From assembly GCA_965218585.1 (NCBI GenBank), contig CBDCLE010000017.1, forward strand, positions 96,001-160,000: 64,000 nt of DNA, in the 5' to 3' direction. This document shows, piece after piece, positions 4,442 through 63,207 of the stretch; the stretch's first letter is position 1, and the number at the start of each line of letters is the position of its first letter. The DNA comes from Terriglobia bacterium. Its GTDB lineage: Bacteria; Acidobacteriota; Terriglobia; 20CM-2-55-15. The position numbers and the translations under genes were made by a program. Below the pieces are notes generated by a model. It worked only from the letters and a program-made list of their open reading frames with translations, made no database searches and was not told the origin of the DNA.

Positions 4442-6550
4442 TTGACGATGACGACCCTGTTTACACTACTGATAGCGATTACGCTCCCAACCGGTTTGAT
4501 CGAGCGCGCGCTCGATTTCTTTGAGCGGGGAGACTATCGGACCTCGGCCGAACTGCTGGATGAGGCCGCTGCGGTTGATCCCGAAGAGTTTCAACTAAAC
4601 AACCTGCACTACCTGCGCGGACGGATCGCTCTGGAAGAAGAAGATTGGTCGCGGGCGGAATCTGAGTTCGCACAAGTATCCGAGAGTAGCGTTCTCGGTG
4701 ACCTTGCCTTGTGGCACCGCGGGCGCGTTGCACTTCGAGACAGTCGTAGTGGGGACACACTTCGGTTTCTGACCCTGCTGGGACCAGGTTTCCCCGACGC
4801 GCTCCGTCTCGAATTGGCCGAGGGCGCCCCAGAGGATGTCGCCCTGACCATTTACCGGTCGGTGTCGGGCCGAGAGTCGCAGTGGAAGCAGGCGTCGATC
4901 CTGGACGACGAAGACGCGATGTGGCAGCTCCTGAACCTCAGCCGCGGCGACGAATTCGCCCTTACAGGCAGCCAGAAGACTGGATGGAAGACCCGCGACT
5001 CCGGCCGAAAGCCTCCGGTTGGCGAAAACATTCCACACTCACCGCATCTTCGATCGGGCCGAAGCCATCTATTCGACGCTGCTCGAAGATCGCTCCGCGA
5101 TCGGTGCCCAGGCCCATTACGAGTTGGGCCGGACTTACTTTCAAAGACTACGGTATGACGATGCCATCGCCGTATATCGGGCCACGACCGAAAGATTTCC
5201 CGACACCGACTGGGAACGCGAGGCGGATGAGCAGATCCCGCCGAATTACTGGCGCAGCCTGGACTACCCCAGGGCCATCGCGGCCTATGAGGCACTGATC
5301 GACAATACGACGATGACCCGGACCTCTATCAATCGGCGCTCCGCGACATGATCGACATCCGTCGCGCGATGGGCGAGGTGGACCAAGCGCAGCGTTTGAT
5401 CGACCAGGCACTGGCTGCGAGCCCCGATAGGAGGGACCGGGCCGTCCTCACCTTCACCCGGGCCAAGATCCATCATGGCGAAGGACAGTACGCCGAAGCG
5501 CTCGGATCGTTTAGCCAGCTTCGCGGCGTGCGAACAGGCCGGGCAGCTAACGGAACGGATCAGACCGAAGTGCGGTTTTTTGAAGCGGCCAGCCTCGAAG
5601 CGCTAGGGCGCACCGACGAAGCACATGCGATCTGGACCGAGCTTTCCGAAGAGCCCTTCGGTTACTACGGCCTTCGATCTTTCGAGAAACTCGGCGACAG
5701 CTCAGCTCCTTCCGCCACACTGCAACAGATGGTCTCGAGGGCCAGGGAGACTCCTGCGGCCTCTCTATGCGGCGAGGCCTCCAACCTGGATTTCATCGAT
5801 GTGGTTCGGCAGCGACGACTCTCAAGGACACGTGGTTTTCTCACACCGGGATCTGTAGAAACAGACCTGGTGGGAGAGCTGGTCTTTCTGCGTCAATGGG
5901 ACGAAGCGTTCTACTGGGCAAACCGTGTCGCCTCCAGATGGAGAGACCAGGCACTGGCCGATTTGGCATATCTCGCTTCAGATTTCAGGCGCTCGATGCT
6001 TTACGCGGACCGTTTGAGACCGGTCGCCGACATAGGGTTGTTCTCACTGGACGCGGAGTATTCGCCTGAGACACGGGTTCTCATGGACATGCTCTACCCT
6101 ACGGCGTTCCGGGATATCGTCTGTCGAGAAGCCCAAGCCGCGGCCGTCAATCCGCTCTGGTTACACGCCATCATGTGGCAGGAGAGCCGATACAACCCCG
6201 AGGCACTCTCCAGCGCGTCGGCCCGAGGCCTGATGCAGTTCATCCCGGAAACAGCGACTCGCATCGCCAACGAAGTTGGGCTGACGGACTTCATGCTGGA
6301 CGACCTGTACCGGTCCGAGATCAGCATTCGCCTCGGCGCGCGTTACTGGGCCGAACTGATTGAAGTGTTCGGAAGTCCCGAACTGGCACTGGCCGCATAC
6401 AACGGCGGTGAAAGAAACGTCGAGCGTTGGCGGGCAAAATCAGAGCTGGAAGATACGGAAAGCTTCGTCTCCGACATCGGTTTCACCCAAACGAAGGCCT
6501 ACGTTCGCGAAGTCTTCGGACTCTTCGCGAAATATGCCCATCTTCTTTAG
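4442..6550 (+). CDS. TPR-containing soluble lytic murein transglycosylase (Slt70-like), split by two indels
   Basis: Signal peptide, TPR helices, C-terminal SLT motifs QESRYNP, ARGLMQF, LAAYNGG; frames rejoin with one extra C near 4960 and one missing base near 5305. Confidence 0.85.
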
Positions 6551-10177: not shown

Positions 10178-11566
10178 TCACCCGGGCTCCTCGACTTCGT
10201 ATTTCGCCGTAATCCAGGCGCCGGTTCCGCCCACCACGTTGTACACCTCACCGAAGCCTTCCCTTTCAAAAATGCTGGTCGCTGCACTCGAGCGATAGCC
10301 ACTACCGCAAATAGCAACGATCGGAATCGAAGCATCGATTTCAGAAAGCATTCGATCCAGGTCAGCCAACTGCAGGTTGACAGCACCCGGAACGTGACCG
10401 GCCGCGTACTCTGACGGACGGCGAACGTCGATAACCTGGAGCTGTCTGTCTTCATCACGACGTGTCTTGAGTTCGTCAACGGGCATCTGTGGTGTCTGGG
10501 CGAGGTCAAAACCCGCCTTGTCCCATGCATAGATACCACCGGCAAGAAAGCCTTCCACCGACTCCAGCCCCACCCGCGCCAGCCGCAAGACTGCTTCCTC
10601 TACACCACCTTCATCTTCTGCAACAACCACGATGCCGGTCGCTGCCGGGATCAAGCTACCCGCCCACGAAGCAAACTGTCCGCCCAGCCCGATGTTAATC
10701 GAACCCGGAACGTGACCGGTGCCGAACGCTGACGCGTTCCGAACATCCAGCACGATGCGTCCCTCGGTCTGAAGACGCTGGGTATCTTCGGCAGAAAGAG
10801 GTACCACTTCGCTCAACTCTTCGAGTCGAGATGCCCCGGTCCGGTTGATCTCCGCATCTCTGGAAAAGTAGGCCGGAACCTCGGGAAGATCCGTCGTCAT
10901 CATCTTCACAAATTCTTCTCTCGGCATCGGATTCAGCGCGTAGTTGAACTTCCGTTGCTCTCCGATGGTCGACATGGTTTCGCGTGACATGTTCCGGCCA
11001 CAGAGAGAGCCGGCGCCATGTGCCGGATAGACTTCTACTTCGTCCGGCAATTTCAGAAGCTTTTCATGCACGCTGTCGTAGAGCATCCCGGCCATCTCCT
11101 CTGCAGAAAAACCTTTGGAGCCGACGAGATCGGGGCGGCCAACGTCGCCGATGAATAACGTGTCGCCGGTGAACAGACGCCGCGTTTCTTCACTTCGGGC
11201 AGTGTTCACAGCCAGAATCGAAATGCCTTCGGGTGTGTGTCCGGGCGTTTCCATCATGCGCAGGACGACACTGCCAACCCTGAGTTCGTCGCCGTCCTTG
11301 ACGCCCAGACAGGAAAACGCGGCCCGCGCCTTTTCGCCGAAGACAATCTCGGCTCCGGTTCGGTCGGCCAGCTCGCGGTGACCGCTGACAAAATCTGAAT
11401 GCAGGTGCGTTTCGATGACGTACTTGATCTCGAGACCATGAGCCGTAGCTTCATCGACATACTGATCGACGTCCCGTTGCGGGTCGATGACTACAGCCTC
11501 TCGGTCAGAACCGATCAAATACGAAGCGTGTGCAAGACAACGCAGGTAGAACTGCTTGAAAATCAT
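10178..11566 (-). CDS. MBL-fold persulfide dioxygenase fused to two rhodanese domains (CstB/Blh-like)
   Basis: THLHSDF, PGHTPE, TGDTLFIGDVGRPDL, HGAGSLCG; two DVR...GHVPG rhodanese repeats, the last with CGSGYRS. Confidence 0.88.
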   Translation of the reverse strand: MIFKQFYLRCLAHASYLIGSDREAVVIDPQRDVDQYVDEATAHGLEIKYVIETHLHSDFVSGHRELADRTGAEIVFGEKARAAFSCLGVKDGDELRVGSVVLRMMETPGHTPEGISILAVNTARSEETRRLFTGDTLFIGDVGRPDLVGSKGFSAEEMAGMLYDSVHEKLLKLPDEVEVYPAHGAGSLCGRNMSRETMSTIGEQRKFNYALNPMPREEFVKMMTTDLPEVPAYFSRDAEINRTGASRLEELSEVVPLSAEDTQRLQTEGRIVLDVRNASAFGTGHVPGSINIGLGGQFASWAGSLIPAATGIVVVAEDEGGVEEAVLRLARVGLESVEGFLAGGIYAWDKAGFDLAQTPQMPVDELKTRRDEDRQLQVIDVRRPSEYAAGHVPGAVNLQLADLDRMLSEIDASIPIVAICGSGYRSSAATSIFEREGFGEVYNVVGGTGAWITAKYEVEEPG

Positions 11567-32363: not shown

Positions 32364-33616
32364 AAGTCATCAGGCGGCGGCCTTCGATTTCATCACGACT
32401 CTGATGCCGTCAGCGAATTGCTGGCCATCATAGACCTCTTGTAAGAGTTCGGATCCTTTTAAGTGTCGCCAAGCCTTCTCAGCGACACGTAGTAGCTTCC
32501 AGATCATTGCCGTTGCATTCTCGACACGCTTGAATCGGCGAGCGGCGTTGGTGCGGAGACGAACCATGTCGAAGGGCGATTCGACGATGTTGGTCGTTCT
32601 CAGATGCACCCAGTGTTGTTTCGGGAACTCATAGAAAGTAATCATCCGGTCCCAGTCCCGCAACAGCGTCTCACCCGCTTTGGGATAGTTCTTCTCATAT
32701 CGGCGGACGAACTGATCCCGCTTTCGTTCGCAGGCCGCGCGGGAGTTCGCGAAGGCCATCCCATGAAGCAGCTGTCTGGCCGCGGGCTGCTCGGTCTTCG
32801 GCAGATGATCGACCACGTTGATCGACTTGTGGTTCCAGCAGCGTTGTTCCTGGCCCTGGGGCTGTTGCTCGGCCAGCGCGGACCAGATGCCCAGGTGACC
32901 GTCCGCGACAGTCAGCCGTCCCAGCTTCAGGCCCCGTCTCTGGAGATTGCGCAGAATGCGGCTCCAGGACTCCTTGCTTTCCCGCTGCCCGCTCTCACAG
33001 GCCAACAGCACTTTGCGCCCGTCTGACAAGGCTCCGATGATCACCAGCAATGCCGCTCGCTCTTTCGCGATCCCCGCTTTCACGTACAAGCCGTCTGCCC
33101 ACTGGTACACGACCTCGAGGCCGGACAGGTCCTGCTGGACCCACTCGTCATACTCCAACTGCCAGGTCGATTTCAGTCGTTGGATCGATGCTCGCGACAA
33201 CGGAGCGCCAGCGCCAAGCAGTCCGCGCATGGCCTGCTCGAAGTCCCCTGTGGCCAGACCGTGGAGGTAGAGATCGGGAAGTAGCTCGCCCAGCTGTTTC
33301 GATTTCCGTCGAAAATACGGCAGGATCTGACTCTCGAACCGCTCGGCGGTGTTTCGAACCCGAGGTCGTCGAACCTCCATCGTACCGTTCATCATTGCGA
33401 AGCGTCGCGGCTTCCCGTGACCGTTCCGGTATCCTCGTCGATTCGGACTCCGCTCCAACTTTTCCCGACCCAGAAATTGAGTGACTTCGTCCTCGAGCAG
33501 CTCCTGTAGCCAGACTTGGACCCGGGATCGCGCCCAGTCCTCCAAACCTTCATACGCGTTCGTTGACGCCACTGATGCCGGTATGTCCTTCTTCTTCATG
33601 GGTGGTGTACCTTTCT
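32340..33616 (-). mobile_element. IS256-family element A, copy 1; intact transposase but lacks the 88 bp 5' end
   Basis: Begins GAGGTCATTACAAAAGGTGTGTAAAA; near-identical to 61843-63119; identity stops at 33616. Confidence 0.9.
32370..33599 (-). CDS. IS256-family (Mutator) transposase
   Basis: YRNGH, WADGLY, VADGHLG, QRCWNHK, TTNIVES. Confidence 0.95.
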   Translation of the reverse strand: MKKKDIPASVASTNAYEGLEDWARSRVQVWLQELLEDEVTQFLGREKLERSPNRRGYRNGHGKPRRFAMMNGTMEVRRPRVRNTAERFESQILPYFRRKSKQLGELLPDLYLHGLATGDFEQAMRGLLGAGAPLSRASIQRLKSTWQLEYDEWVQQDLSGLEVVYQWADGLYVKAGIAKERAALLVIIGALSDGRKVLLACESGQRESKESWSRILRNLQRRGLKLGRLTVADGHLGIWSALAEQQPQGQEQRCWNHKSINVVDHLPKTEQPAARQLLHGMAFANSRAACERKRDQFVRRYEKNYPKAGETLLRDWDRMITFYEFPKQHWVHLRTTNIVESPFDMVRLRTNAARRFKRVENATAMIWKLLRVAEKAWRHLKGSELLQEVYDGQQFADGIRVVMKSKAAA

Positions 33617-34171
33617 TGCCCGCAACCAATCGATAACGAAAGGATCCCCGGACCCGGGCGGCAAGATGTCGCTGGTGCTGTCAATCCTGCTGTTTCCGGC
33701 AAAGAACATCAGCTTGTTGGGCTGAGTGCTGGTTGGCAAAGGCGCAAACCACTGGTCACAAACGGCGAACTCGTTTGCCAGAAACGTTGTGATGGGCACG
33801 GCGCCCGGCCGTTGGAATCCCATCACTTCGGGTTCGGTCGGGTCAGGGATCTCGAAGCCTCTCTCTTGGGCATACTCGAAGTACGAACGGGCAAAGCCGT
33901 TCATACTGTGACCGTTGCCGCTTTTCGCAAGCTGGACGGCGATTCTCTCCCGTGCGTGTGGCGCATCGCCCGGCAACCACTTGTCTCCTGCTTCGAAGGG
34001 AAAGAACGACTTGCTGCCAAACCGATTCTCGTAGTCGGAGCGCTCAAGCGGGCGATGCAATCCGTTGACGTCCCTGCCGAGGTCGTAGCTGAGGTGTCCC
34101 AGCATGTGGTCGAAGGAGCGGTCTTCGAACATCAGATAGACGATCGTGTCAACGAGTCTGGGGTCTGTCAT
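33596..34171 (-). pseudogene. 5' fragment of a phosphoesterase (phospholipase C/AcpA family)
   Basis: LMFEDRSFDHMLG, MNGF, FAVCDQWF, TQPNK; fused to IS sequence at 33617. Confidence 0.8.
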
Positions 34172-34500
34172 GAGCACCTCACGATTTGCTGTCCTCTATT
34201 CACACCGAGCCATGACCAGCCGACGGCCTGTCTCACCACGGCGGCCCGCACTCGCCAGGTCTGTCATGAAACTGTGCCTCACTAATCAGATAGGACGTAA
34301 TCTAACGCAAAATTCGTTTGGGAGCCTCGGGAAACTGGATCATATGCCGAGCTAAGCCACCTAAAAGAGCGGACCGTGAGAGACGGATCGAAAGCGGTAT
34401 TTCTGAATAAAATCAGCTTCAAGTCTCACCCAAGAGATGGACACCTTAGCAGGAGTCTAAATCACTGATTTAAAGGCTCAAAACGCGCTCCCCGCAAACC

Positions 34501-37466: not shown

Positions 37467-38852
37467 GAGTTATTGTCAAAAGTGGTGTTTTGCCGATTGA
37501 CTCAAGCGGCGGCCTGATCGACGTGGGTCACTTCGATTCCATCGTTGAATTTCACTCCAGTAATCACCTTGGGCAGATCATCGAATCCTCGTAATCGTCG
37601 CCAGTTCTTTTGAGCGCACTGTCCCAGTTTGAACATCATGTGCAGCATGCCAACCCGCGTCAGGCAACCCCTGGATCGCTTGGTTCGGTGGCGAATGGTA
37701 GCAAAGGTCGACTCAATGGGATTGGTCGTTCGGATGCTCTGCCAGTGCTTGGCCGGGAAGTTGAAGAAGGCCAGCAGTTCTTCTTTGTCTTTCTGGAGGC
37801 AGCGAGTGGCTTTCGGATACTTCGGCTCATAGGTTTCAATGAACAGATCGAATGCCTTCTCGGCGTCTGCCTGTGTCTGAGCCCGCCAGATCGCGTGCAA
37901 AGCCTGTTTCGCCTTCGCCTGGGCCGACTTCGGGAGCCCGTTCAGTACGTTCATGGTCTTGTGCATCCAGCAACGTTGGTGACGTGTCTCGGGATAGATT
38001 TCCTCCAGTGCGGCCCAGAATCCCATCGCACCGTCTCCGATGGCCAACTTCGGGATATTCATCCCACGCGACTTCAGCTTTAACAAGACCTCGCGCCAAC
38101 TCTGTGTCGATTCCCGGACACCGTCTTCGATTGCCAGAAAACGTTTCTCTCCGCGTTGATTCGCGCCGATCACCACCAGTGCGCACAACTTGGTTTCTTC
38201 GGCCCGCAGTCCGCTGTAGATACCGTCGGCCCAGACATAGACCCAGCGATCGGCATCCAATCGCTCCTCGCATCCCCGGCGGTACTGCTCGGCCCAGACC
38301 TGTTTCAACCGCGATACCGTGCTCGCCGACAGGCCCTGCGCCTGGGGTCCGACAAGAACTTTTAGAGCGTCACCCATCTCGCCGCTGGAGACGCCTTTCA
38401 AATACAACCACGGCACCGCTGCTTCCAGCGATTTCGTTTTCCGAATGTAGGGAGGTACCAGGGCCGACCGGAACGTTACCGGGTCGCCAGTCTTCGCTCG
38501 GACTTTCGGGATCTGGACCGTTACCGGCCCCAAACCGGTCTGCAGTTCACGTTCAGGCAGATAACCGTTGCGCACCACCCCGGCGTTGCCCGTCTCGGTT
38601 CTCCGATCGCCGTGGTGGGATAGCAGTTCCGCCAATTCGGTTTCCACCGCGCGTTGGATCAGTTGCTGAGCTCCAACTCGTAGTAGCTCTGTTATCGGAT
38701 CCTCAATCGTCTCTCGACCCTCCGGTCCAGTCACGTTACTCTTGCTCATAGTGGCGTATCTCCCTTGGTTGCTTTGAAGTCTGGTAAACAACAAATCAAC
38801 CAGATACGCCGCTCTTCCTCAATCCCTTAAACACCAGATTCGGTTATAACTC
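37467..38852 (-). mobile_element. IS256-family element B, complete, 1386 bp, 9 bp target duplication
   Basis: Imperfect TIRs GAGTTAT-N9-TGGTGTTT at both ends; ACTGACGTC at 37458-37466 and 38853-38861. Confidence 0.95.
37502..38749 (-). CDS. IS256-family transposase
   Basis: VRNGYLP, WADGIY, IGDGAMGF, QRCWMHK, TTNPIES. Confidence 0.95.
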   Translation of the reverse strand: MSKSNVTGPEGRETIEDPITELLRVGAQQLIQRAVETELAELLSHHGDRRTETGNAGVVRNGYLPERELQTGLGPVTVQIPKVRAKTGDPVTFRSALVPPYIRKTKSLEAAVPWLYLKGVSSGEMGDALKVLVGPQAQGLSASTVSRLKQVWAEQYRRGCEERLDADRWVYVWADGIYSGLRAEETKLCALVVIGANQRGEKRFLAIEDGVRESTQSWREVLLKLKSRGMNIPKLAIGDGAMGFWAALEEIYPETRHQRCWMHKTMNVLNGLPKSAQAKAKQALHAIWRAQTQADAEKAFDLFIETYEPKYPKATRCLQKDKEELLAFFNFPAKHWQSIRTTNPIESTFATIRHRTKRSRGCLTRVGMLHMMFKLGQCAQKNWRRLRGFDDLPKVITGVKFNDGIEVTHVDQAAA

Positions 38853-41316: not shown

Positions 41317-41578
41317 CTGAGCTACCTCCTGCCAACTACTCTCAAAATGTCTTGGGCCGTCGCCGGACACCAGGCCGATGCCGGACCAGCCCACTCGTCG
41401 AGTTCATTCTGCTGGGAAGGTAATAGCAGTTATGTGACCAAGAGTTGCGGCAACCGGCGAGAAGCCGTTGGGAACCAGTAAAGTCGTTTACTCAAAAGGA
41501 GTTGAAAAGAATCCGGAACCGGACGATCATACGAACTCTGTCTATGAAATCAATCCACGCACTAATCAGGAGGTTGCC

Positions 41579-43695
41579 TTGCTTCAGTTCATTCACCGCC
41601 GTCTGCGTTCGAGACCACGACCTGCAAAGTTTGCGATCTTCACTGTGTGTCTGGCCACGGTATTCCTGTCGTGGACTCATTTTTCAGATGCGCAGCAACT
41701 CGATCTGGTGATGGATATCCCGGAGGCGCCGGCTTTTTCGAGTGACACCCTCAATGCTCTTCCGACGGACGGATGGCTGACCAACGGCGGTAACCTCGCC
41801 AACCAACGCTATTCCCCTCTCACACAGATCACTCAGGAAAACGTCGGAGACCTCAAGGCTGTCTGGAGGACTCACCTGGACGCATCGGGTTCCGGCCCCC
41901 GTTATTCAGGGGAAGCTTCCCCGATCGTTCATGAAGGCGTTGTTTACATCCCTACCGGAGAAGACGATGTGTTTGCGTTGAGCGTCGAAACCGGTGAGAT
42001 CGTTTGGAAATACCAGGCCCGTTTAGATCAGACCATCGACACGGTCTGCTGCGGATGGTCCAGCCGGGGTGTCGCTCTGGGCGATGGGAAGGTGTACGTC
42101 GGGCAGCTCGACGGCAAACTCGTGGCTTTGGATCAACAGAGCGGAGACATTGAATGGTCGACGCAGGCCGAACGCTGGGAAGAGGGTTACACCATTACGA
42201 GCGCGCCTCTCTATTACAACGGTCTGGTCATCACCGGCTTCGCTGGCGCGGAGCGCGCCACGCGCGGTCGCGTCAAGGCTTACGATGCCGACAACGGCTC
42301 GCTCGTCTGGACTTTCTATGTCGTTCCCGGCCCCGGTGAACCCGGGAACGAAACGTGGCCTCAAGACAATGAGGCCTGGCGTTACGGCGGGGGGACAGTT
42401 TGGCAAACCCCGGCTGTAGATCCGGACCTCGGCATGATCTATTTCTCGACGGCAAACGCGAATCCGGACCTCGACGGTTTCTTATCGGGCAGGAGACAAT
42501 CTGTACACGTCTTCTGTCGTCGCATTGGACGTCACGACGGGCGAATACCGCTGGCACTACCAGACCGTCCACCACGACATCTGGGACTATGACATGTCAA
42601 CTCCGGTGGTCCTGTTTGACGTCGAGATCGACGGCCGCGAGCGCCAGGGACTGGCCGCAACGAGCAAGACCGGATGGTTGTACATCCTGGACCGCACAGA
42701 CGGAGAACCGCTGATCGGGATTGAAGAACGGCCGGTACCCCAGGAACCCCGGCAGGCGACCTCCGCAACACAGCCTTATCCCGTCGGTGACGCCTTCGTT
42801 CCACAGAGCGTGGACATCGCACCCGAAGGCTTCGCGCTCGTCAATGGAGGCCGCATTTTCACGCCGTTCTGGACAGAACGTATCGTGCTCAAGCCTTCGG
42901 CTCTGGGCGGAGCCAATTGGCCACCGTCCTCCTATGACCCCGAAAACCAGACCTATTTTGTTTGCGCAAACGACAAGTACCAGAGCCTCGCTTATTCAAT
43001 TCCCGTCAACAATGAGGACCCCGAGCCCGGGGAGATGCGTGCGGGAGGGTCACTGGGGGGTGAGGTCCCACTGCCCACGTTCGGCATTCTGGCGGCGATG
43101 GATGTGACGACAAACCGCATGGTCTGGCAACAAAAGTGGGCCGACTTTTGTTACAGCGGGTCTGCCGTAACGGCCACGGGCGTGCTCTTTATCGGCCGCG
43201 ACGACGGACGGTTCACAGCGCTGGACACCGAGGACGGCTCACTCTTGTGGGAGTTTCAAACCGGTGCCGGAGTCAACGCTCCGCCGGCGGTCTTCGAATA
43301 CGAGGGCACTCAGTACGTCGTCGCGTATTCGGCCGGCAACTTGTTTGCCGGATCGCCCAAGGGTGACAGCGTGTGGCTGTTTTCCCTGAACGGCACACTC
43401 GAACCGGTTGCTCCGCCCACTAACGTTGCCGGCCGCGGTGCGGCACCTGCTGCGGCCCGTCCGGCGGATCCAGATCTGGGACGTTTGGTCTACACGCAAA
43501 CCTGCTTGTTCTGTCACGGCTCCGAAGGAGCGGGCGGACACGGCGGTCCCCCCATAGAGAGCGTTTTTTGACGAAACAACGGCAGCCGGACTCATCCGGG
43601 CCGGTCGGAACGATATGCCCGCTTTCGGCACACTTCTGACGGAACAGGAAATCGCCGACGTGTCTGCATACATCATCACGGAGTTGGGCCAATAG
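41579..43695 (+). CDS. PQQ-dependent dehydrogenase with C-terminal cytochrome c (quinohemoprotein); two homopolymer frameshifts
   Basis: RYSPLTQIT, vicinal CC, GAE, GGTVW, HHDIWDYD, GGANW, CLFCH and distal MPAF; extra T near 42479 and near 43566. Confidence 0.85.
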
Positions 43696-43728
43696 AAGAG
43701 GGTGGGGGGAGCGCCGAAGGAACCGCGA

Positions 43729-45345
43729 ATGCATCAAGGCATCGGATTGACAATTCTTACGGTCTTCGCACTTCTTATTTCGGCGTGCGGTTCCCCGCCC
43801 GTACTCCAGTTGATAGAAATCACCGAAAGACCGAGTGATACCGTTCCTCTGGCAAGCCTGCTCACACTGCAAACCGATCAACCGACGACGGTCTCGCTGG
43901 AGTTCAGTGATGGGGAACGTAGCTGGGATGTGGAGCCGGAATCGGAGTTGGCAACCCGCCACGAGATCCCCCTGATCGGGATGCGCCCAAACCGGACTCA
44001 CAACCTACGCGTGGAGGTCATCGACCAGGGGGGGCGTATCGCAGCATCCCAACCCCTGGAGATCACGACGCCTCCACTTCCGGAAGACTTCCCTCCTCTG
44101 GAGACCCGAATCAGCGAACCGGAACTCATGGAGCCGGGTTTTACGATGTTCAACCTGACCAACCGGAACTCCGATGGCCGGGACGAGACCGGACCGCTCG
44201 TGATCGTGGATGAGGCTGGTGAGGTTGTCTGGTACTACTGGACCGACCATCTCGTGGGCGATGCTCGCAGGCTTCGGAACGGAAACATCCTGTATCAGTC
44301 AGGGCGGGACGGCCGGATTTACGAGATCGACATGCTGGGCAACGTCATCTCCCAATGGACGTCCGATCGGACGTTCGAAGAACTCGTGCTCCCTGGGAAC
44401 ATTCCGGTCAACACGGATACGTTTCACCACGACGCATTCGAAACCGCTTCAGGAAATATTCTCGCGATCAGCTCGGAGCTTCGAAATTTCGACGATTTTC
44501 CGAGCAGTGATACCGATCCAAACGCGTCACGATTGACCTCGGAAGTCGTCGGGGACGTCCTCGTCGAATTCGGCCGCGACGGCCAGTTGCTTCGCGAAGT
44601 AAGACTCCTGGACGTTCTCGATCCTCTCCGCATCAGCTACAACTCGCTCGGCGCCGGATACTGGACTTCCGTCTACGGTCAGCCCGAAGGTCTTCCCAGG
44701 CGGGATTGGGCGCACACCAACGCGGTCGTGATGGATGCGAGCGAAACCTACGCCATTGCGTCCATGCGACACCAGGACGCCGTGGTCAAGATCAACATGG
44801 ACACTGGAGAGCTCGGGTGGATCCTCGGGGATCACGGCGGATGGGGCCCCGAATGGCAGGAGTATCTGCTGGAACCGGTTGGCGGTCTTGTCTGGCCCTA
44901 TCACCAGCACGCACCGATGATCACGCCCGCAGGCAACATCTTGATGTTCGACAACGGGAACAATCGGGCGGTAGCGTTCGAGGAGCGTGTCCCGATTGAG
45001 GACTCTTTCAGTCGCGCAGTCGAGTACGCCGTGGACGAAGACAATATGACCGTGACCCAGGTCTGGTCTTATGGCGGCGGACCGGAAGACAAAACCTACT
45101 TTGCAAACTTCGTCAGCGACGCCGACTGGATGACGGATACCGGCAACGTCCTGATCGATTTTGGAGGACTGGTCTCGGACGACGAGGGCCGATTCGTCGC
45201 GGGCGGTACGCACAACTGGACACGTATCGTTGAAGTGACCCACGAGACACCGGCCAGGAAAGTCTTTGAACTCTTTGTAAACGCAGAACCACCCGAAGGA
45301 TGGTTCTCGTTCCGCGCGGAACGTATCCCCAGCGTCTATCCATAG
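43729..45345 (+). CDS. Aryl-sulfate sulfotransferase (ASST) lipoprotein
   Basis: Lipobox ISAC; FHHD, DWAHTNA, SMRHQ, HQH, FDNG, SRAVEY. Confidence 0.85.
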   Translation: MHQGIGLTILTVFALLISACGSPPVLQLIEITERPSDTVPLASLLTLQTDQPTTVSLEFSDGERSWDVEPESELATRHEIPLIGMRPNRTHNLRVEVIDQGGRIAASQPLEITTPPLPEDFPPLETRISEPELMEPGFTMFNLTNRNSDGRDETGPLVIVDEAGEVVWYYWTDHLVGDARRLRNGNILYQSGRDGRIYEIDMLGNVISQWTSDRTFEELVLPGNIPVNTDTFHHDAFETASGNILAISSELRNFDDFPSSDTDPNASRLTSEVVGDVLVEFGRDGQLLREVRLLDVLDPLRISYNSLGAGYWTSVYGQPEGLPRRDWAHTNAVVMDASETYAIASMRHQDAVVKINMDTGELGWILGDHGGWGPEWQEYLLEPVGGLVWPYHQHAPMITPAGNILMFDNGNNRAVAFEERVPIEDSFSRAVEYAVDEDNMTVTQVWSYGGGPEDKTYFANFVSDADWMTDTGNVLIDFGGLVSDDEGRFVAGGTHNWTRIVEVTHETPARKVFELFVNAEPPEGWFSFRAERIPSVYP

Positions 45346-45362: not shown

Positions 45363-45845
45363 CTAAGACTTCACGAACTCCACAACCCCCAGGACGTCCT
45401 GCCATACCAGCCGGCCGATCGGTCCCGAGCTGTAGACGCCGACCATGATCTTGCCGTCGGGACGCAAAAGGTATCCCGTGCCGTGGAGAATCCCTCGCTT
45501 TTCCTCGTAGAAGGCTCCTGTAAGGCCGGACACCTCCTTGAAATCCAGGCCGTAACCTACGGGAAAATTGATTCCGCACTCTTCGATCGTTTTCTGTGCA
45601 TTTTCCTCCGAATCCACGGAGGCGGCCACCACCCTGACGCCCTCGTCGCTTAGCTTACTGGCCTTCGCGAAAGCAGTCAGCTGCTGGCGGCAGTACGGTC
45701 ACCAATGCCCCCGATACAGGAGAACGACTCCAAAACTGTCGGCAAGCTCATCGGGAAGACTGAGCGTTCCGCCTCCGACTCTCTGGATTTCGAGCTTTGG
45801 AAAATCATCTCCCGAATCCAATATTTTTGTCCCTTCTGTGGGCAT
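45363..45845 (-). CDS. Selenocysteine-containing peroxiredoxin-like (AhpC/TSA) protein, 160 aa
   Basis: RBS GAGGAG, ATG 45845, in-frame TGA at 45699-45701 in YRGHW-U-PYC, frame continues into ORF 45363-45632; SECIS-like hairpin follows. Confidence 0.9.
45652..45682 (-). promoter_or_regulatory. Bacterial SECIS element candidate
   Basis: AGCT-G-ACTG-CTTT-(CGCG)-AAGG-C-CAGT-A-AGCT; apical loop starts 30 nt after the UGA with G at loop position 2. Confidence 0.7.
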
Positions 45846-45888: not shown

Positions 45889-46620
45889 TTAGATCAGGAC
45901 GCGCAAAAGGACAATCATACCGGATACGAATGAGAGGCCGAGTACCAGTGGTCGAATGATTCCGTCCGACATCCGGTCGCGCAACGGTGCTGCCAGCCAG
46001 AAACCCAGTGCCATCGGTGGAGCTAAGAATAGAGACAGAACGAGTTCTTCAGCCCCGAAGCGGCCGATAAAGAACAAGACCGTGAGAGAAATAGCGCCCC
46101 CTAGCAGAAAATACCCGGCCAGCGTTCCGCGCAGGCGCGATGCTCCCGAACTCTGATAGAGGAGCGCCATAGGAGGGCCGCCTATGGAAGATATCGTTCC
46201 CATCAGACCCGACAACGTGCCCGCTATGACAGCATTCCTCCGGTTCGGCCGCGGACGAATGCCGGCGGCGCTCAAGATCACGGCGAACATCACAAGTACA
46301 GCGAAGGCGAGGTCGAACGAGGCTTCGGAGGCAACCAACAAGAATCCTGCCGCACCCGCCGTACCCACCACTCGCCCGATGAGGGAAAACGTCACACCGG
46401 ACACATCAACGTGCTGATGGTCTCGAATCAGGATGAAAGCCGTCAGAACCATCCCCGCGGCCATCATGGGTCCGGGCACGAATGGTCCATAGATCAGCAG
46501 CAAGAGCGGGGCCGCAACCAATGCAAGACCAAACCCCGCCGCAGATTGAACGACAGCGGCTATCGTGGCAATCGCGAATACGGCAATGGCTTCGACCGGA
46601 CCCAGCGGAAAGGAAAACAT
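45889..46620 (-). CDS. TauE/SafE family sulfite exporter
   Basis: Multi-pass membrane protein with AGFGLALVAAP and SIGGPP repeats; start uncertain. Confidence 0.85.
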   Translation of the reverse strand: MFSFPLGPVEAIAVFAIATIAAVVQSAAGFGLALVAAPLLLLIYGPFVPGPMMAAGMVLTAFILIRDHQHVDVSGVTFSLIGRVVGTAGAAGFLLVASEASFDLAFAVLVMFAVILSAAGIRPRPNRRNAVIAGTLSGLMGTISSIGGPPMALLYQSSGASRLRGTLAGYFLLGGAISLTVLFFIGRFGAEELVLSLFLAPPMALGFWLAAPLRDRMSDGIIRPLVLGLSFVSGMIVLLRVLI

Positions 46621-46924
46621 TGAGTGGGCATCCTGCATGATTCGTGACAAAGAATCCAGTACGGGTTCAACTACGGTTTAAAAAGGTCCGGACAATCTGT
46701 CACGAGCGGGAACCCTTGAGGTTAATAGTGACATGGAAATTCACCCTGTGATGGCCTCATTCCGCGTAACATGCTGGAATTACGGAACTAGATTTGGCCC
46801 ATCAGTTGCTTCCTCAAGAATCGGGCTCTACGACGTGGTGGAGAGTTCCTCGTCGGTCTGAGTCCCTTTCTGGAGAGCCGTTGAGGCATACTTTCCAGAG
46901 ACCGAACATGCTTCAGGAGAAGTG

Positions 46925-49261
46925 ATGGCTATTTTTCGTAGAGACTTTCTGAAATACGCGGGTACCGGCATGGCACTGCTGCCGGTAGAGACACTATGGG
47001 AATCGGGCACGACGCTCGCTCAAGTCGAAGCGCCGGGGCTGGACCCCAGACTGACCTGGTCGAAGGCACCCTGCCGGTTCTGCGGAGTCGGATGCGGCGT
47101 CATGGTCGGCGCCGAGGATGGAGTTGTCAAGGCAGTGGCGGGCGACGAACTGAGCCCGGTGAACCGTGGGCTTCTCTGCGTCAAGGGATACAGTCTGCCC
47201 GCTGTTCTCTACGGTGAAGACCGCCTCCTCTATCCCCAGATCCGAACGTCCAATGGACTCAGGCGAGCCACCTGGGATGAGGCCCTCGATCTGATCGCCG
47301 CACGATACTCCGAGACGCTGGATCAATCCGGCCCCGAATCTGTTGCGATTTACGGATCCGGCCAGTGGACGCTTTCCGACGGGTATGTTGCCAGCAAGTG
47401 GTTCCGCGCCGGCATGGGATCCAATAACGTCGAGTCCAACGCCCGACTTTGCATGGCCAGCGCGGTCACGGGATTCATTACGAGTTTCGGTATGGACGAA
47501 CCCATGGGCAACTACGACGATCTGGAAGCGGCCGACGTTCTGGTGCTCTGGGGCAACAACATGGCGGAGAACCACCCGGTCCTGTTCTCAAGAATCATTG
47601 AATCGAAGCGCATCAGACCGGAGGTGCAGATCATCGACATCGGGACCCGCCGGACTCCTACGACGGATTATGCCGACCAGTTCGTGGGAATACAGCCAAA
47701 TGGGGACCTTGCACTGGCCAACGCCATCGCGCAGGTCATTGTCGCCTCCGACAGGATCGACCGTGATTTCATTAACGATCACACGGTCTTCCGGCGCGGG
47801 CGGGAAAACATCGGCTACGGCCTGGAAGACAAGTTTGTTTTCAACGATCAGCCCGAGGCCATGACCCTGGAGGAATTCCGAGCCTATCTCGAACCGTATG
47901 CTCCCGAACAGGCAGCCGCCCCGAGCGGTATTCCGGCCGAGCAGATCCGTCAGATCGCCGAACTCTATGCCGATCCTTCCAGGAAGGTCGTCTCTCTCTG
48001 GTGTATGGGAATGAACCAGCACGTGCGCGGCACCTGGATCAACAACCTTGTAAACAATCTCCATCTGTTGACGGGAAAGATAGCCAAACCCGGCAACAAC
48101 CCGTTTTCATTGACCGGGCAACCCAGCGCCTGCGGTACGGTGCGCGAAGTGGGTACGCTTGCGCACCGTCTGCCGGCCGACATGGTCGTCACCAACCCCG
48201 AACACAGGCAGACGGCGGCCGATATCTGGGATGTCCCGGTTGAGCAAATACCCCCGACTCCGGGATACAACACCGTTGAAATGTTCCGCGCCCTGGATCG
48301 GGGAGACATTCGCACCATGTGGATTCAAGTGACTAACCCGATGGTGACGATGCCGCATCTTTCCAGATATCGCAGCGCTGCGGAAAAGGAAGACCGTTTC
48401 ATCGTAGTCTCGGAGGTATATCCCACACCCACGACGGAGATTGCTGATGTTGTCCTCCCCTCTGCCATGTGGGTGGAACGCAGTGGCATGTTCGGAAACT
48501 CGGAACGCCGGACGCAGCAATGGTTCCAGGCTGCAACTCCGCCGGGAGAAGCCCGTTCCGACGTATGGCAACTCATGGAAGTTGCACGCCGGATGGGATA
48601 TGACGACCTCTTCGACTACAGCGATGACTACGAGCGCGAAATCTTCAACGAATACCGTCAGTTTACGCTCGGCCGCGGCCACGACCTTGCCGAGTACGAC
48701 GATTACGTAGAGAACCGGGGATTGCGCTGGCCAGTCGTTGATGGACAGGAAACCGCCTATCGTTACGCAGAAGGATCCGATCCCTACGTTCCGGCAGGCG
48801 AGTCCTTCAGGTTTTACGGCAACGAAGCAACCGACGGACGTGCTGTTATCTGGGCTCGGCCCTATGAGCCACCGGCCGAAATCGTCGATGATGACTACCC
48901 GTTCTGGTTATCGACCGGCCGGGTTCTCGAACACTGGCACACCGGCAGCATGACGCGCCGAGTGGGACCACTGCACGGAGCCGTCAGTGAAACCTATGTG
49001 GAATTGAATCCGGACGATGCGCGCGATATGGGCATCCAATCGGGGAACAGCGTCCGTCTGGTGAGCCGGCGTGGAGAAATTGTCCTTCCGGCCAGCATCG
49101 ATGGCCGGGGACAGCCCCAACGCAGGATGGTTTTCGTTCCCTTCTTTGAAGAAGCGAAGCTGATCAACCAACTGACACTGGATGCCTACTGTCCGATATC
49201 CAAGCAGCCGGACTACAAGAAGTGCGCTGTACGTGTCGAGAAGGTGGGGAACACGGCATGA
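46925..49261 (+). CDS. napA: Periplasmic nitrate reductase catalytic subunit
   Basis: Tat signal RRDFLK, CRFCGVGC...C cluster, GSGQW, NARLCMASA, GQPSACGTVRE, TGRVLEHWHTGSMT, QPDYKKCAV. Confidence 0.93.
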   Translation: MAIFRRDFLKYAGTGMALLPVETLWESGTTLAQVEAPGLDPRLTWSKAPCRFCGVGCGVMVGAEDGVVKAVAGDELSPVNRGLLCVKGYSLPAVLYGEDRLLYPQIRTSNGLRRATWDEALDLIAARYSETLDQSGPESVAIYGSGQWTLSDGYVASKWFRAGMGSNNVESNARLCMASAVTGFITSFGMDEPMGNYDDLEAADVLVLWGNNMAENHPVLFSRIIESKRIRPEVQIIDIGTRRTPTTDYADQFVGIQPNGDLALANAIAQVIVASDRIDRDFINDHTVFRRGRENIGYGLEDKFVFNDQPEAMTLEEFRAYLEPYAPEQAAAPSGIPAEQIRQIAELYADPSRKVVSLWCMGMNQHVRGTWINNLVNNLHLLTGKIAKPGNNPFSLTGQPSACGTVREVGTLAHRLPADMVVTNPEHRQTAADIWDVPVEQIPPTPGYNTVEMFRALDRGDIRTMWIQVTNPMVTMPHLSRYRSAAEKEDRFIVVSEVYPTPTTEIADVVLPSAMWVERSGMFGNSERRTQQWFQAATPPGEARSDVWQLMEVARRMGYDDLFDYSDDYEREIFNEYRQFTLGRGHDLAEYDDYVENRGLRWPVVDGQETAYRYAEGSDPYVPAGESFRFYGNEATDGRAVIWARPYEPPAEIVDDDYPFWLSTGRVLEHWHTGSMTRRVGPLHGAVSETYVELNPDDARDMGIQSGNSVRLVSRRGEIVLPASIDGRGQPQRRMVFVPFFEEAKLINQLTLDAYCPISKQPDYKKCAVRVEKVGNTA

Positions 49262-49796: not shown

Positions 49797-51989
49797 TCAA
49801 AAATTGAACAAGTTCGTGAACTTGACGATGAGAGCGCGATCGGTGGCCTGATTGCGTTCAGTGTCCCGCACGTCGTTGTAAACGATGAAAAGATCGCTCA
49901 GGGGACTATGAATGATGTTGAAGCGAATATTCGAACTCAGTTGGTGCCGGTCGGCGTTGTACTGCACAAAGGCGTTCAGAAACGCCCGCGCCGTGAACGC
50001 ATAGGTAAAGCGGGCCGCGACAAGGTCGGTCGTGAACTTTCCAGCGGGAAGCGAGATTCGGTTGTGGGTGTAGTCCAGTTCGATATTGACCCGATAATTG
50101 GGCCGGAAATTAAATCTAAAACCGATCGATTTCTGGTCTCCGTTCCAGAACTCACCCCAGTCAGCATCGATACGCCCTCCCAGGCTCGCACTCGTGTCAT
50201 TCCGGATGCTGAAGTCGTACCGCGTGTACTTGTAGTCGCCAGCAGGAATCACGATACCGGGTCGAATGGCAAAGTCCCGTGTCAGACGATCAAAGCTTTC
50301 CATCACGCTGAAATCAATCAAACCGCTGTTCTGGAAGTCGATGCCCAGACCCACCGACTGAGTTCGGGTTTCAACTTTTTCGGTGCTGCCGTTCTCGAAG
50401 TACTCCAGGTTGGCTTCGAAAACGAGATTCCGAATCGAATCGCTACTCTCGATGAGCGGATTCCACGCGATCTCGCCGGCATACTGGCTGATGTTCCGAC
50501 GCCGGACGAATCCCACTTCGGGATTGAAATTTGTCTGGATCTCGTTGTATTCGCCACCAATGACAAATTCATCGTCGCGTCAGGCCGTCTGAAATCTTCG
50601 TGCCTGATTCTCATCGGTCAATCCCGGCGTATCGCTCCCAAGAAGGTAAGCGTCGAATTCCAGCCGTTCGTAAAACTGGAAATGCGCGTCGGCTCCATAG
50701 ACACGGTTGTAGTCATCGGCCGCGCTCGAATTCCGGCTGGTCACAAGTCCTCCGACCCAGGAGTTGGTCATGAGGTTTCGTTTGAACCGACCGACAAAGT
50801 AATCGTTGGACGGTGTGCCCTCGACCGACTCCGTCTTCATAGCCAAAACGCCGACATCGTTCGGACCTAACTGGCCTGTCAGACGACCTCCTCCAACGAT
50901 CGGAATGGGACTGCCGTCCCCGCCCAGGCCGATTCGGCGACTGAAGAACGGAACCAGGTTCCCACCGGGACCAAAGGCAAATGTCCCTGAATTTTCCAGA
51001 AAAAACTCCCTCTTTTCCGGAAAGAAGAGATTGAACCGCGTCAGGTTGACCTGTTGCTGATCCACCTCGACCTGCGCAAAATCTGTTCTATATGTCGCAT
51101 CCAACGTAAGGGATGGCGTGAGCCCGTACTTGATGTCTATTCCACCGTCGAAATCGTAATCGGTGACCATGTCTCCAATTGCAGGATCCGAATTTCGACT
51201 CTGAGTAAACCCGGCTGACGCAAACGGCTTGACCTTCAAATTCCGGCCTTGACGAACGTCCTCCAGGCCACGGAGCGTCCCGGCCAGGGACATGCGAGTT
51301 TGACGGTAACGGACGGGAATGGGAGCCCACATGCTCTCTTCGTTGATCCGCCGAATACCCCGCGAGAGGTTGATGCCCCACTCCTGGGACTGGGAATTCG
51401 AAAATCGGAGCGTCTTAAAGGGAATACGAACCTCTACAATCCAGGCGTCACTGGTCTCGGTGATTTCAAAGTCCCACACCCCGTCCCAATCCCAATTGCT
51501 GGTCCCACCGTTGTTGGCCACCTGACCGTCACGCCGCCCGCCTCCAGGGTTGACGGCGAAAGCAAATCCAGAACGATCGTCATTCAAGCTGTCGATCATT
51601 ATGGCCAGGTTGTCGGACTCGCCGAAGGGGAAGTCGTCGGTGATGTGGTTCACTGTCAGCTGATCCATTTCGGAATCGAAACAGATAATGCCCACGTACA
51701 GATTGTCATCATCGTAGAGAAACCGGGTTTCGGTGGCTTCGGTGGCCGGTGACTCGGGGTTGGGCTGCCACTGCAGAAAGTCACCCGCAACCGCTGCCAC
51801 GGCCCATGCCGCTTCATCCAGGCGGCCGTCGAGGTTTATCGGTTCGGTGATTCGAACGGCATCCACGACTCTGGCGAGGTGCGCTGTGTCGTAATCAATA
51901 GGAACACTTTGGGGGGCGGAAGCTCGAGGAAACACCGGGACGGCACACAGGAGGAACGTAGCGAGAATTCGAACCAAGACCTTGATCAT
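49797..51989 (-). CDS. CBM9-like + DUF5916 outer-membrane protein with one in-frame TGA at 50580-50582
   Basis: LDGRLDEAAW, YDDDNLYV, EVRIPF, TDFAQVEVD, FFPEKREFFLE, FFSRRIG; C-terminal F; the two ORFs share a frame. Confidence 0.82.
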
Positions 51990-52020
51990 CTTACGTGAAC
52001 AGCCTAACAGATTTCCCTGT

Positions 52021-52812
52021 TCACTCCGGGGAGTCTCGGAGTCCCTCGGCGCAAGCAAACTCTCGGAGTTCGTCGTTCGGATAGGCTGCTTTTCTATAAG
52101 TGCGAGTCGCTTCCCAGGGTTCGACAAGTGCCACGGGATCGTAGACGACAATCCGATCCTCGAGGATATCGGGAGCAATGAACCGGATTCGCTCGGTCAC
52201 TCTCATCTGTTCGCTGTGAGGGGACGAACCGTCGATAAAAGAGTTTGTGCTCAGTGACACGGTTTCGACCACCAGCGTATCGCCTTCCCAATGGCCGGTC
52301 GAATAGCCGGCGTAGGTGGGGTCATTCAGAACGTCTTCGCTCACCTCACGCCCATCCAGATAAACGCGCCGCATCGCGTCCTGCCACTCGCTGAAGAAAG
52401 TGATCTTGTCGTCAGTCTGCATCACTTCCATGCCGTAGGACATGTTCATCATGTGTGGCATGCCTGGTGGAAGACAGTTTGCGATGTTGTCGTACTCGTA
52501 CGATCCGCTCATGCGGGATTCGCGGATAACTTCCCATCGGGCCATATACTCGGCCCTAAGCCGGGGAGCATTGGGGGAAGGCCCGCCTGACAGGTCACCG
52601 ACCGGAGCAGGCCGGGGAGGTGGAAGAGGGCCCTGCGGTTGATTTGCCAGTGCGCCACCCCGACCCTGCTGAAACGGATAATACACGCCCGAAAAGTCAT
52701 GTGCGGTTGTGGATTCTCCGGCAGAATCCTGAGCGCTCGCGCTCCCCGATATCAGGACAACCACGCCCAGAAAAGCCACGATCCACGATGCCCAAACGAT
52801 GGTTTTTTGCAT
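52021..52812 (-). CDS. Exported hypothetical protein, DUF6152-associated family
   Basis: Signal peptide; CLPPGMP, GYSTGHWEGDTLVVET, PHS, EFAC. Confidence 0.75.
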   Translation of the reverse strand: MQKTIVWASWIVAFLGVVVLISGSASAQDSAGESTTAHDFSGVYYPFQQGRGGALANQPQGPLPPPRPAPVGDLSGGPSPNAPRLRAEYMARWEVIRESRMSGSYEYDNIANCLPPGMPHMMNMSYGMEVMQTDDKITFFSEWQDAMRRVYLDGREVSEDVLNDPTYAGYSTGHWEGDTLVVETVSLSTNSFIDGSSPHSEQMRVTERIRFIAPDILEDRIVVYDPVALVEPWEATRTYRKAAYPNDELREFACAEGLRDSPE

Positions 52813-61842: not shown

Positions 61843-63207
61843 GAGGTCATTACAAAAGGTGTGTAAAAGTCATCAGGCGGCGGCCTTCGATTTCATCACG
61901 ACTCTGATGCCGTCAGCGAATTGCTGGCCATCATAGACCTCTTGTAAGAGTTCGGATCCTTTTAAGTGTCGCCAAGCCTTCTCAGCGACACGTAGTAGCT
62001 TCCAGATCATTGCCGTTGCATTCTCGACACGCTTGAATCGGCGAGCGGCGTTGGTGCGGAGGCGAACCATGTCGAAGGGCGATTCGACGATGTTGGTCGT
62101 TCTAAGATGCACCCAGTGTTGTTTCGGGAACTCATAGAAAGTAATCATCCGGTCCCAGTCCCGCAACAGCGTCTCACCCGCTTTGGGATAGTTCTTCTCA
62201 TATCGGCGGACGAACTGATCCCGCTTTCGTTCGCAGGCCGCGCGGGAGTTCGCGAAGGCCATCCCATGAAGCAGCTGTCTGGCCGCGGGCTGCTCGGTCT
62301 TCGGCAGATGATCGACCACGTTGATCGACTTGTGGTTCCAGCAGCGTTGTTCCTGGCCCTGGGGCTGTTGCTCGGCCAGCGCGGACCAGATGCCCAGGTG
62401 ACCGTCCGCGACAGTCAGTCGTCCCAGCTTCAGGCCCCGTCTCTGGAGATTGCGCAGAATGCGGCTCCAGGACTCCTTGCTTTCCCGCTGCCCGCTCTCA
62501 CAGGCCAACACCACTTTGCGCCCGTCTGACAAGGCTCCGATGATCACCAGCAATGCCGCTCGCTCTTTCGCGATCCCCGCTTTCACGTACAAGCCGTCTG
62601 CCCACTGGTACACGACCTCGAGGCCGGACAGGTCCTGCTGGACCCACTCGTCATACTCCAACTGCCAGGTCGATTTCAGTCGTTGGATCGATGCTCGCGA
62701 CAACGGAGCGCCAGCGCCAAGCAGTCCGCGCATGGCCTGCTCGAAGTCCCCTGTGGCCAGGCCGTGGAGGTAGAGATCGGGAAGTAGCTCGCCCAGCTGT
62801 TTCGATTTCCGTCGAAAATACGGCAGGATCTGACTCTCGAACCGCTCGGCGGTGTTTCAAACCCGAGGTCGTCGAACCTCCATCGTACCGTTCATCATTG
62901 CGAAGCGTCGCGGTTTCCCGTGACCGTTCCGGTATCCTCGTCGATTCGGACTCCGCTCCAACTTTTCCCGACCCAGAAATTGAGTGACTTCGTCCTCGAG
63001 CAGCTCCTGTAGCCAGACTTGGACCCGGGATCGCGCCCAGTCCTCCAAACCTTCATACGCGTTCGTTGACGCCACTGATGCCGGTATGTTCTTCTTCTTC
63101 ATGGGTGGTGTACCTTTCTCCCGATTGCTGCCGGGATTGCTTACGGTTTCGAATTCACCGAAAGCGTACACCGCCTTCTCTTTTTACACACCGATTGGAA
63201 CGACCTC
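61843..63207 (-). mobile_element. IS256-family element A, copy 2; full length 1365 bp, 8 bp target duplication
   Basis: TIRs GAGGTCRTTMCAA--GGTGTGTAAAA; TCGATGGG at 61835-61842 and 63208-63215. Confidence 0.95.
61873..63102 (-). pseudogene. IS256-family transposase with nonsense codon (R82 CGA to TGA)
   Basis: Near-identical to 32370-33599 but stop at 62857-62859. Confidence 0.9.

Follow-up and report, generated by a model that had tools for sequence, protein, structure and literature searches.

Among the described bacterial selenoproteins, the closest counterpart of the gene considered here is the family known as Prx-like (1), which is characterised by pfam00578 and a UxxC motif (PMC1088965; PMC2398784, Table 2) and which a table in a 2026 review lists as "Prx-like thiol:disulfide oxidoreductase, PF00578, UxxC/UxxU" (PMC13188914). 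Prx-like genes are recorded in Syntrophus and Geobacter in a paper that also places Acidobacteria among the phyla with selenoproteins (PMC1794560), and MAGs of "Nitrospinota"/UBA8248 are listed with 48–54 selenoprotein genes (PMC13326102). The Prx-like (1) class is defined operationally, by Pfam domain and motif, and may hold several subfamilies. To our knowledge, the Prx-like UxxC family is biochemically uncharacterised. As regards recoding signals, the SECIS of the E. coli fdhF type is a coding-region stem-loop that lies right after the UGA and exposes a small, G-containing apical loop about 20 nt downstream.

The stretch of DNA analysed here, hereafter the window, is 64 kb long. Our reading of its sequence is that the interval 45363–45845 is a single gene for a Prx-like UxxC selenoprotein, UGA codon 49 of which is very probably decoded as selenocysteine (Sec) (Table 1). 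Translation table 11 splits this gene into a 48-aa ATG ORF (45699..45845) and an 89-aa GTG ORF; when TGA is translated as U, the frame, which stays open for 111 codons beyond the TGA up to a TAG at 45365–45363, yields a protein of 160 aa with U49 embedded in YRGHW-U-PYC (context VVLLYRGHW-U-PYCRQQL). The original prediction had described a ribosome-binding site and an ATG at 45845, 48 codons, the TGA, an open frame to 45363 and the YRGHW-U-PYC motif, and every one of these coordinates is confirmed; it had also remarked that the ORF list showed the last 89 aa only, and table 11 does list that piece, in addition to the 48-aa N-terminal ORF. The choice of start codon is supported by the tblastn alignments, which begin at query residue 1 in most Sec-form loci. 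Coding scores were taken on both sides of all in-frame TGA sites of the window that have an upstream start and at least 30 open codons downstream; the TGA at 45699 ranks fifth among these 260 sites and, unlike the other four at the top, overlaps no known gene. This ranking, together with Pfam searches on two candidates, revealed no further selenoprotein gene in the window, only broken genes, and a motif scan for such genes returned 118 noisy candidates.

Table 1. Features of the Prx-like locus and its flanks, in window coordinates
Feature	Position	Strand	Remarks
Prx-like gene, predicted selenoprotein	45363..45845	-	160 codons + TAG; AhpC/TSA thioredoxin-fold domain; U49-P-Y-C52
Shine-Dalgarno-like GAGGAG	45857-45852	-	6 nt before ATG; direct sequence reading
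ATG start codon of the Prx-like gene	45845-45843	-	direct sequence reading
In-frame TGA, probable Sec codon (residue 49)	45701-45699	-	after 48 sense codons; TGA/Cys pairing across loci
SECIS-like stem-loop, positions 8-45 (U of UGA = 1)	45657..45694	-	MFE -11.4 kcal/mol for 45 nt; putative SECIS function
TGC codon of Cys52, predicted resolving partner in UxxC	45690..45692	-	sequence and profile alignment
89-aa GTG ORF	45363..45632	-	C-terminal fragment without active site; output of ordinary gene calling
TauE/SafE-family membrane protein gene	45889..46650	-	Pfam TauE 2.1e-21; directly upstream of the Prx-like gene, 43-nt gap
Arylsulfotransferase gene	43702-45345		converges on the Prx-like gene
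Molybdopterin oxidoreductase gene	46922-49261		diverges from the TauE side

The uninterrupted translation matches the Pfam AhpC-TSA domain over residues 12–133, that is, across the TGA (profile positions 2–121 of 124; E 5.1e-17; 62.4 bits, cut-off 26), and Pfam Redoxin as well (1.6e-11). No NCBIfam model was matched at its cut-off, the scores being 31.5 against 170 for ResA, 19.7 against 120 for the SelL-related NF040769 and 19.2 against 270 for PrxU (NF040737). An AlphaFold2 model computed from 42 aligned homologues (pLDDT 95.7, pTM 0.91) places residue 49 directly before a helix spanning residues 50–60. In a Foldseek comparison of this model with the PDB, peroxiredoxins rank first (Bcp4, 3hjp, TM 0.83; Prx6-type and AhpC structures, TM 0.76–0.82; E about 1e-11), and ResA reaches a TM of about 0.70. 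The best PDB match of the single sequence is ResA (2.4e-08), and the family profile, compared with the PDB peroxiredoxins, aligns best to 6q5v (E 1.8e-14). The profile alignment sets Cys52 opposite the peroxidatic Cys of the peroxiredoxins, U49 opposite their conserved Thr, Arg45 opposite a Pro, and Gly122 (Ala or Ser in relatives) opposite the catalytic Arg; neither the canonical PxxxTxxC motif nor the catalytic Arg is present in this alignment.

Set beside the canonical peroxiredoxins (AhpC/Prx1, BCP/PrxQ, Prx6), the window protein is predicted to have the same fold (TM 0.76–0.83) and keeps a Cys at the peroxidatic position, but it carries R45...U49..C52, with Sec for Thr and Gly122 for the catalytic Arg. 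It also differs from the Sec-containing PrxU, which has a TxxU rather than a UxxC motif and whose model it matches with only 19.2 of the 270 bits needed. The resemblance to the ResA/TlpA oxidoreductases lies in the W-C-x-x-C-type site at a helix N-terminus; unlike these proteins, the window protein has a Prx-type N-terminal hairpin and a C-terminal helix, scores below the ResA cut-off (31.5 vs 170) and has no hydrophobic anchor or signal. As no such hydrophobic N-terminus was found in the translated sequence, the protein is probably cytoplasmic. From the alignments and the structure model, we take it to have a peroxiredoxin fold without the peroxiredoxin catalytic triad and, in its place, a thioredoxin-style W-U-x-x-C site.

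A word-index protein search returned 626 candidates, 510 of them homologues with E up to 1e-3, and an exhaustive search of representative proteins returned 2118 at the same limit. Among the best 120 of the 510 homologues, 23 cover at least 82% of the query, and 97 cover 52–67% (88–116 aa) and correspond to the part after the TGA. Such pieces bear out the expectation that standard annotation truncates the gene, an error that affects most database entries of the Prx-like family, to judge by these 97 of the best 120. The pieces of 92 aa and shorter lack a Pfam domain, as does an 89-aa database entry (P0004) that is 99% identical. In 15 aligned full-length database homologues, residue 49 is Cys in 12, Trp in two (P0002, P0003) and Ser in one (P0009).

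The codon itself was compared through a scan of species-representative genomes, in which 580 of 584 candidate stretches were confirmed and the best 80 loci were retained and classified. In these best 80 loci, the homologous codon is TGA in 51 and Cys in 29 (23 TGC and 6 TGT); a locus without TGA always has Cys here and never an Arg or Trp codon. The 51 TGA loci, L035, L041, L043 and L058 among them, comprise 50 intact genes and one copy disrupted by an insertion sequence (IS) (L079), and they belong to independently assembled records from several phyla. The Sec-form records are labelled Nitrospinota, Tectomicrobia/Entotheonella, Rokubacteria, Methylomirabilota, Nitrospirota, Myxococcota and delta-proteobacteria, with close relatives of the window gene in Nitrospinota/UBA8248-type lineages; the Cys forms bear the labels Actinomycetota, Alphaproteobacteria, Gemmatimonadota, Dormibacterota and, in one record, Terriglobia. 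A codon alignment was made from 47 Sec forms. At conserved positions before and after the TGA, these sequences use different synonymous codons for the same residue; upstream of it, examples are a Val (GTG 29, GTC 12, GTT 5), a Leu (CTG 20, CTC 13, TTG 6) and an Arg (CGC 20, CGG 15, AGG 5). Because synonymous codons vary at conserved residues flanking the TGA, the alignment points to purifying selection on one continuous protein. A quick maximum-likelihood tree of 100 rows, drawn with L079 left out, parts 71 Sec rows from 29 Cys rows by one branch with an SH-aLRT of 99. The comparison with Cys homologues, which had been proposed as a check of the original prediction of a UxxC peroxiredoxin-like selenoprotein, accordingly came out in its favour, with Cys at the TGA site both in 29 of the 80 best loci and in 12 of the 15 full-length database proteins, and with both flanks conserved.

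Several variants of the active site were observed among the relatives. In L041 (456–950) the motif contains two TGAs and would read W-U-P-Y-U, a UxxU form; in L035 (2159–2629) the Trp codon before the Sec codon is also TGA, giving TGA TGA, which may reflect a pseudogene, an error or an additional Sec. Furthermore, 20 loci, for instance L002 (6659–7140), carry a second Sec paralogue with the motif YRSHW-U-PYC-[LIV]AQ, arranged in tandem with the first and about 660 nt downstream of it; the loci with this arrangement include L001–L023, L028 and others. No tandem second Sec copy is present in the window.

The codon comparison also bears on the possibility of selenium-free readthrough of the UGA, either by a near-cognate tRNA (Trp or Cys) or under a reassigned genetic code (table 4/25). 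Such decoding would agree with the W found at the Sec position of the full-length homologues P0002 and P0003, and with the fact that the Sec machinery was not found in the 64-kb window: none of its 126 ORFs of at least 125 aa has a SelA-, SelB- or SelD-type domain, ARAGORN detected no tRNA of any kind in it, and in the flanks of the 51 Sec-form loci the same program found Ser, Leu and Glu tRNAs and no tRNA-Sec. The W residues of P0002 and P0003, however, probably go back to TGA codons for which the gene caller of the source applied a different genetic code. Since 17 of the 38 Pfam-supported genes of the window end in TGA, this codon is an ordinary stop there and the code is not reassigned, and code 4/25 was rejected on that account. 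All 29 non-TGA loci among the best 80 have Cys here, which is chemically analogous to Sec, and the lineages of the relatives are reported, in the lists of PMC13326102, as rich in selenoproteins. Readthrough of the UGA without selenium is, in the light of these observations, quite improbable.

Another explanation is that the TGA arose by nonsense mutation, or by a sequencing or assembly error, and that the Prx-like gene is a pseudogene. The window does hold genuinely broken genes (a transposase, a PQQ dehydrogenase and a DUF5916 gene), from which it follows that pseudogenes occur in the host genome, and in L079, a syntenic relative, the Prx-like gene is broken by an IS630-like insertion. We nevertheless consider this explanation highly improbable: a TGA that recurs in 51 of the 80 best loci, in several phyla and always opposite Cys, between flanks that are both under selection at the protein level and in a frame that is open with a good coding score on either side, is hard to reconcile with decay, and the broken genes of the window are single-genome events at positions that are not Cys. 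Finally, the view that the TGA is a true stop, with a 48-aa N-terminal peptide and/or an internally started C-terminal protein of 89–111 aa as products, is barely conceivable, for although table 11 yields exactly such ORFs and the databases hold many short entries, neither piece contains the whole thioredoxin fold, the AhpC-TSA domain and the AlphaFold2 model need both, pieces of up to 92 aa are without a Pfam domain in the database, and Cys homologues of equal full length exist.

The broken genes are of several kinds. The PQQ-dependent dehydrogenase at 41468–43571 (+) consists of two overlapping ORFs in different frames (41468–42592 and 42525–43571), which cover positions 1–256 and 273–595 of the Pfam PQQ profile; the split looks like a frameshift, reflecting either a pseudogene or an assembly error. 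A CBM9/DUF5916 gene at 49797–52178 (-) contains an in-frame TGA at 50582–50580, after codon 532, followed by 260 open codons with a high coding score and an end, ...FTNLFNF, like that of an outer-membrane protein; there is no Cys or redox motif at this TGA, which is probably a nonsense mutation. Three copies of an IS256/Mutator-family transposase lie on the minus strand (32370–33629, 37502–38794 and 61873–63171). The last of these has a TGA at 62859–62857 where the copy at 32370–33629 has CGA, with the Pfam domain spanning the TGA; a nonsense codon interrupts this copy, which is instructive to compare with the Sec codon of the Prx-like gene. A phosphoesterase-family ORF at 33596–34177 (-), which abuts the transposase at 32370–33629 and matches positions 1–143 of a 356-position profile, has possibly been truncated by the IS.

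Returning to the selenoprotein reading, we examined the RNA downstream of the UGA, numbering the U of UGA as 1. Within the predicted stem-loop, an apical helix of 5 bp (17–21/26–30, that is, 45685–45681 with 45676–45672; pair probabilities 0.90–0.93) closes a 4-nt, G-containing loop, CUGA, at positions 22–25 (45680–45677), and this helix together with a lower one (13–15/34–36) scores -9.5 kcal/mol as a core alone. The spacing resembles that of the E. coli fdhF SECIS; the window differs from the latter in its loop sequence CUGA and in the lack of an Rfam match, and the clades of the Prx-like family differ in their hairpins. Folding stability gave no signal: in dinucleotide shuffles of a 66-nt stretch the z-score was +1.26, with 186 of 200 shuffles folding at least as well, and synonymous-codon shuffles gave p = 0.195 for the window and mean z-scores of -0.44 for the 47 Sec forms vs -0.12 for the 29 Cys forms. 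Rfam searches found nothing in the whole window at gathering thresholds and, between 45300 and 45900 at E up to 10, a single chance match to an lncRNA (E 1.4). Conservation at synonymous sites shows no clear reduction downstream of the TGA in the 47 Sec forms.

Across the family, RNAalifold returned a consensus helix of no more than 4 bp (CUGC/GCAG, positions 9–12/18–21); this core was discarded as a Sec-specific element, several Cys forms being able to form it too. In Nitrospinota-type genes, the 9–21 helix extends down to the UGA; a helix 4–12/18–28 is weak, its covariation score being reached by 13 of 500 shuffles. A different helix (13–19/25–31, loop AGUUG) is strong in Rokubacteria-type genes, and the family alignment contains compensatory changes in it: at the alignment pair 24–38, 40 sequences have GC and 5 have UA; the pair 23–39 is AU in 11, GC in 5, GU in 2, UA in 1 and unpaired in 27. 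The covariation of this 13–31 helix is 0.085 vs 0.032 in shuffles, with none of 500 shuffles reaching it; a control slid by +1, however, gives 0.087. A SECIS-like rule of our own (at least 4 bp, a loop of 3–9 nt with a G, loop start at 16–30) is satisfied by 17 of 47 Sec forms vs 4 of 29 Cys forms. A hairpin was also observed in the tandem Sec paralogue (13–18/24–29, loop CAGAU): over 8 distinct sequences its pairing amounts to 89.6%, and at two of its pairs both partners have changed.

Of what had originally been proposed for the RNA, the existence of a hairpin after the UGA stands; the loop, which had been placed 30 nt downstream, lies at positions 22–25, and the designation as a bacterial SECIS found no backing in stability, in an Rfam match or in a family-wide structure. 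The window holds a SECIS-like element for which a SECIS role is plausible, and the family appears, from the alignments, to have clade-specific hairpin variants rather than one conserved structure.

The TauE/SafE-family gene upstream is a possible operon partner of the Prx-like gene; no promoter-like site was found in the 43-nt gap between them. When the neighbours of the window gene were compared by tblastn with the best 80 loci, adjacency to TauE was shared with L079 alone (75% identity), and the arylsulfotransferase, Mo-oxidoreductase and PQQ dehydrogenase gave no match in any of them. L079 (3712–6288), from a record labelled Terriglobia, is the sole relative with the order TauE, then Prx-like gene; its TGA is at 4800, and an IS630-like transposase ORF breaks its Prx-like frame behind ...KAGKLV, the frame continuing from 6001. 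The neighbourhood in L002 consists of unrelated housekeeping genes. Several genes of the window are related to sulfur, namely TauE, the arylsulfotransferase and a fusion of a metallo-beta-lactamase fold with rhodanese at 10178–11566 (-), likely a sulfur enzyme of the persulfide dioxygenase type.

By its Pfam domain and motif, the window gene can be assigned to the published Prx-like (1) class, with which it shares pfam00578, Sec as the first residue of a thioredoxin-like UxxC, many Cys homologues and a distant similarity to peroxiredoxins. The UxxU variant seen in its relative L041 is likewise among the forms that the PMC13188914 table lists, and deltaproteobacterial and Smithellaceae members of the class fall in the Sec clade of the window gene. 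The tie to the Prx-like type sequence, WP_010940744.1, is an indirect one, through delta-proteobacterial members of the same clade. A difference from the Prx-like (1) records lies in the host, seemingly an acidobacterium: the AsnRS encoded in the window is 76–80% identical to three entries named "Acidobacteria bacterium".

From the Sec reading of the Prx-like gene we infer, in line with the original prediction, that the host possesses the Sec machinery and inserts Sec; the substrate and the reductant of the protein are likewise deduced. UGA codon 49 would be decoded as Sec by SelB and tRNA-Sec, probably assisted by the coding-sequence stem-loop directly 3' of it. Sec49, located at the N-terminal end of the active-site helix, would stand where a CxxC motif has its nucleophilic first Cys, and Cys52 where peroxiredoxins have their peroxidatic Cys. 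In the likely course of the reaction, Sec49 would attack the substrate, which may be a disulfide, a sulfenic acid or a peroxide; Sec49 and Cys52 would then be joined in a selenenyl-sulfide, and a thioredoxin- or glutaredoxin-type reductant would recycle the enzyme.

A more far-reaching reading would combine a mechanistically distinct subfamily with clade-specific recoding signals and a TauE/SafE link to sulfite or selenite; as a whole we regard it as unlikely. In its first part, the replacement of the peroxiredoxin Thr by Sec, the retention of the peroxidatic Cys as resolving residue and the loss of the Arg suggest a selenium-first peroxidase or thiol-oxidoreductase cycle, and the subfamily may differ in mechanism from peroxiredoxins and thioredoxins alike. 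Secondly, the family may use at least three alternative hairpins, that is, 9–21 with its extension in Nitrospinota-type genes, 13–31 with the loop AGUUG in Rokubacteria-type genes and 17–30 with the loop CUGA in the window. Lastly, the TauE/SafE neighbour, which the window shares with L079, could point to a role of the Prx-like protein in sulfite or selenite handling.

Publications on the Prx-like family and on how to find its members date back to the mid-2000s, and the gene described here opens no new question; it adds a member to a widespread UxxC family. For annotation, the consequence is that one selenoprotein gene of 160 codons should be called at this locus and not an 89-aa hypothetical protein. 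Clade-specific hairpins, if true, would imply lineage-specific recognition of SECIS elements by SelB. As for the organism itself, probably an acidobacterium, the gene would indicate that it uses selenocysteine.
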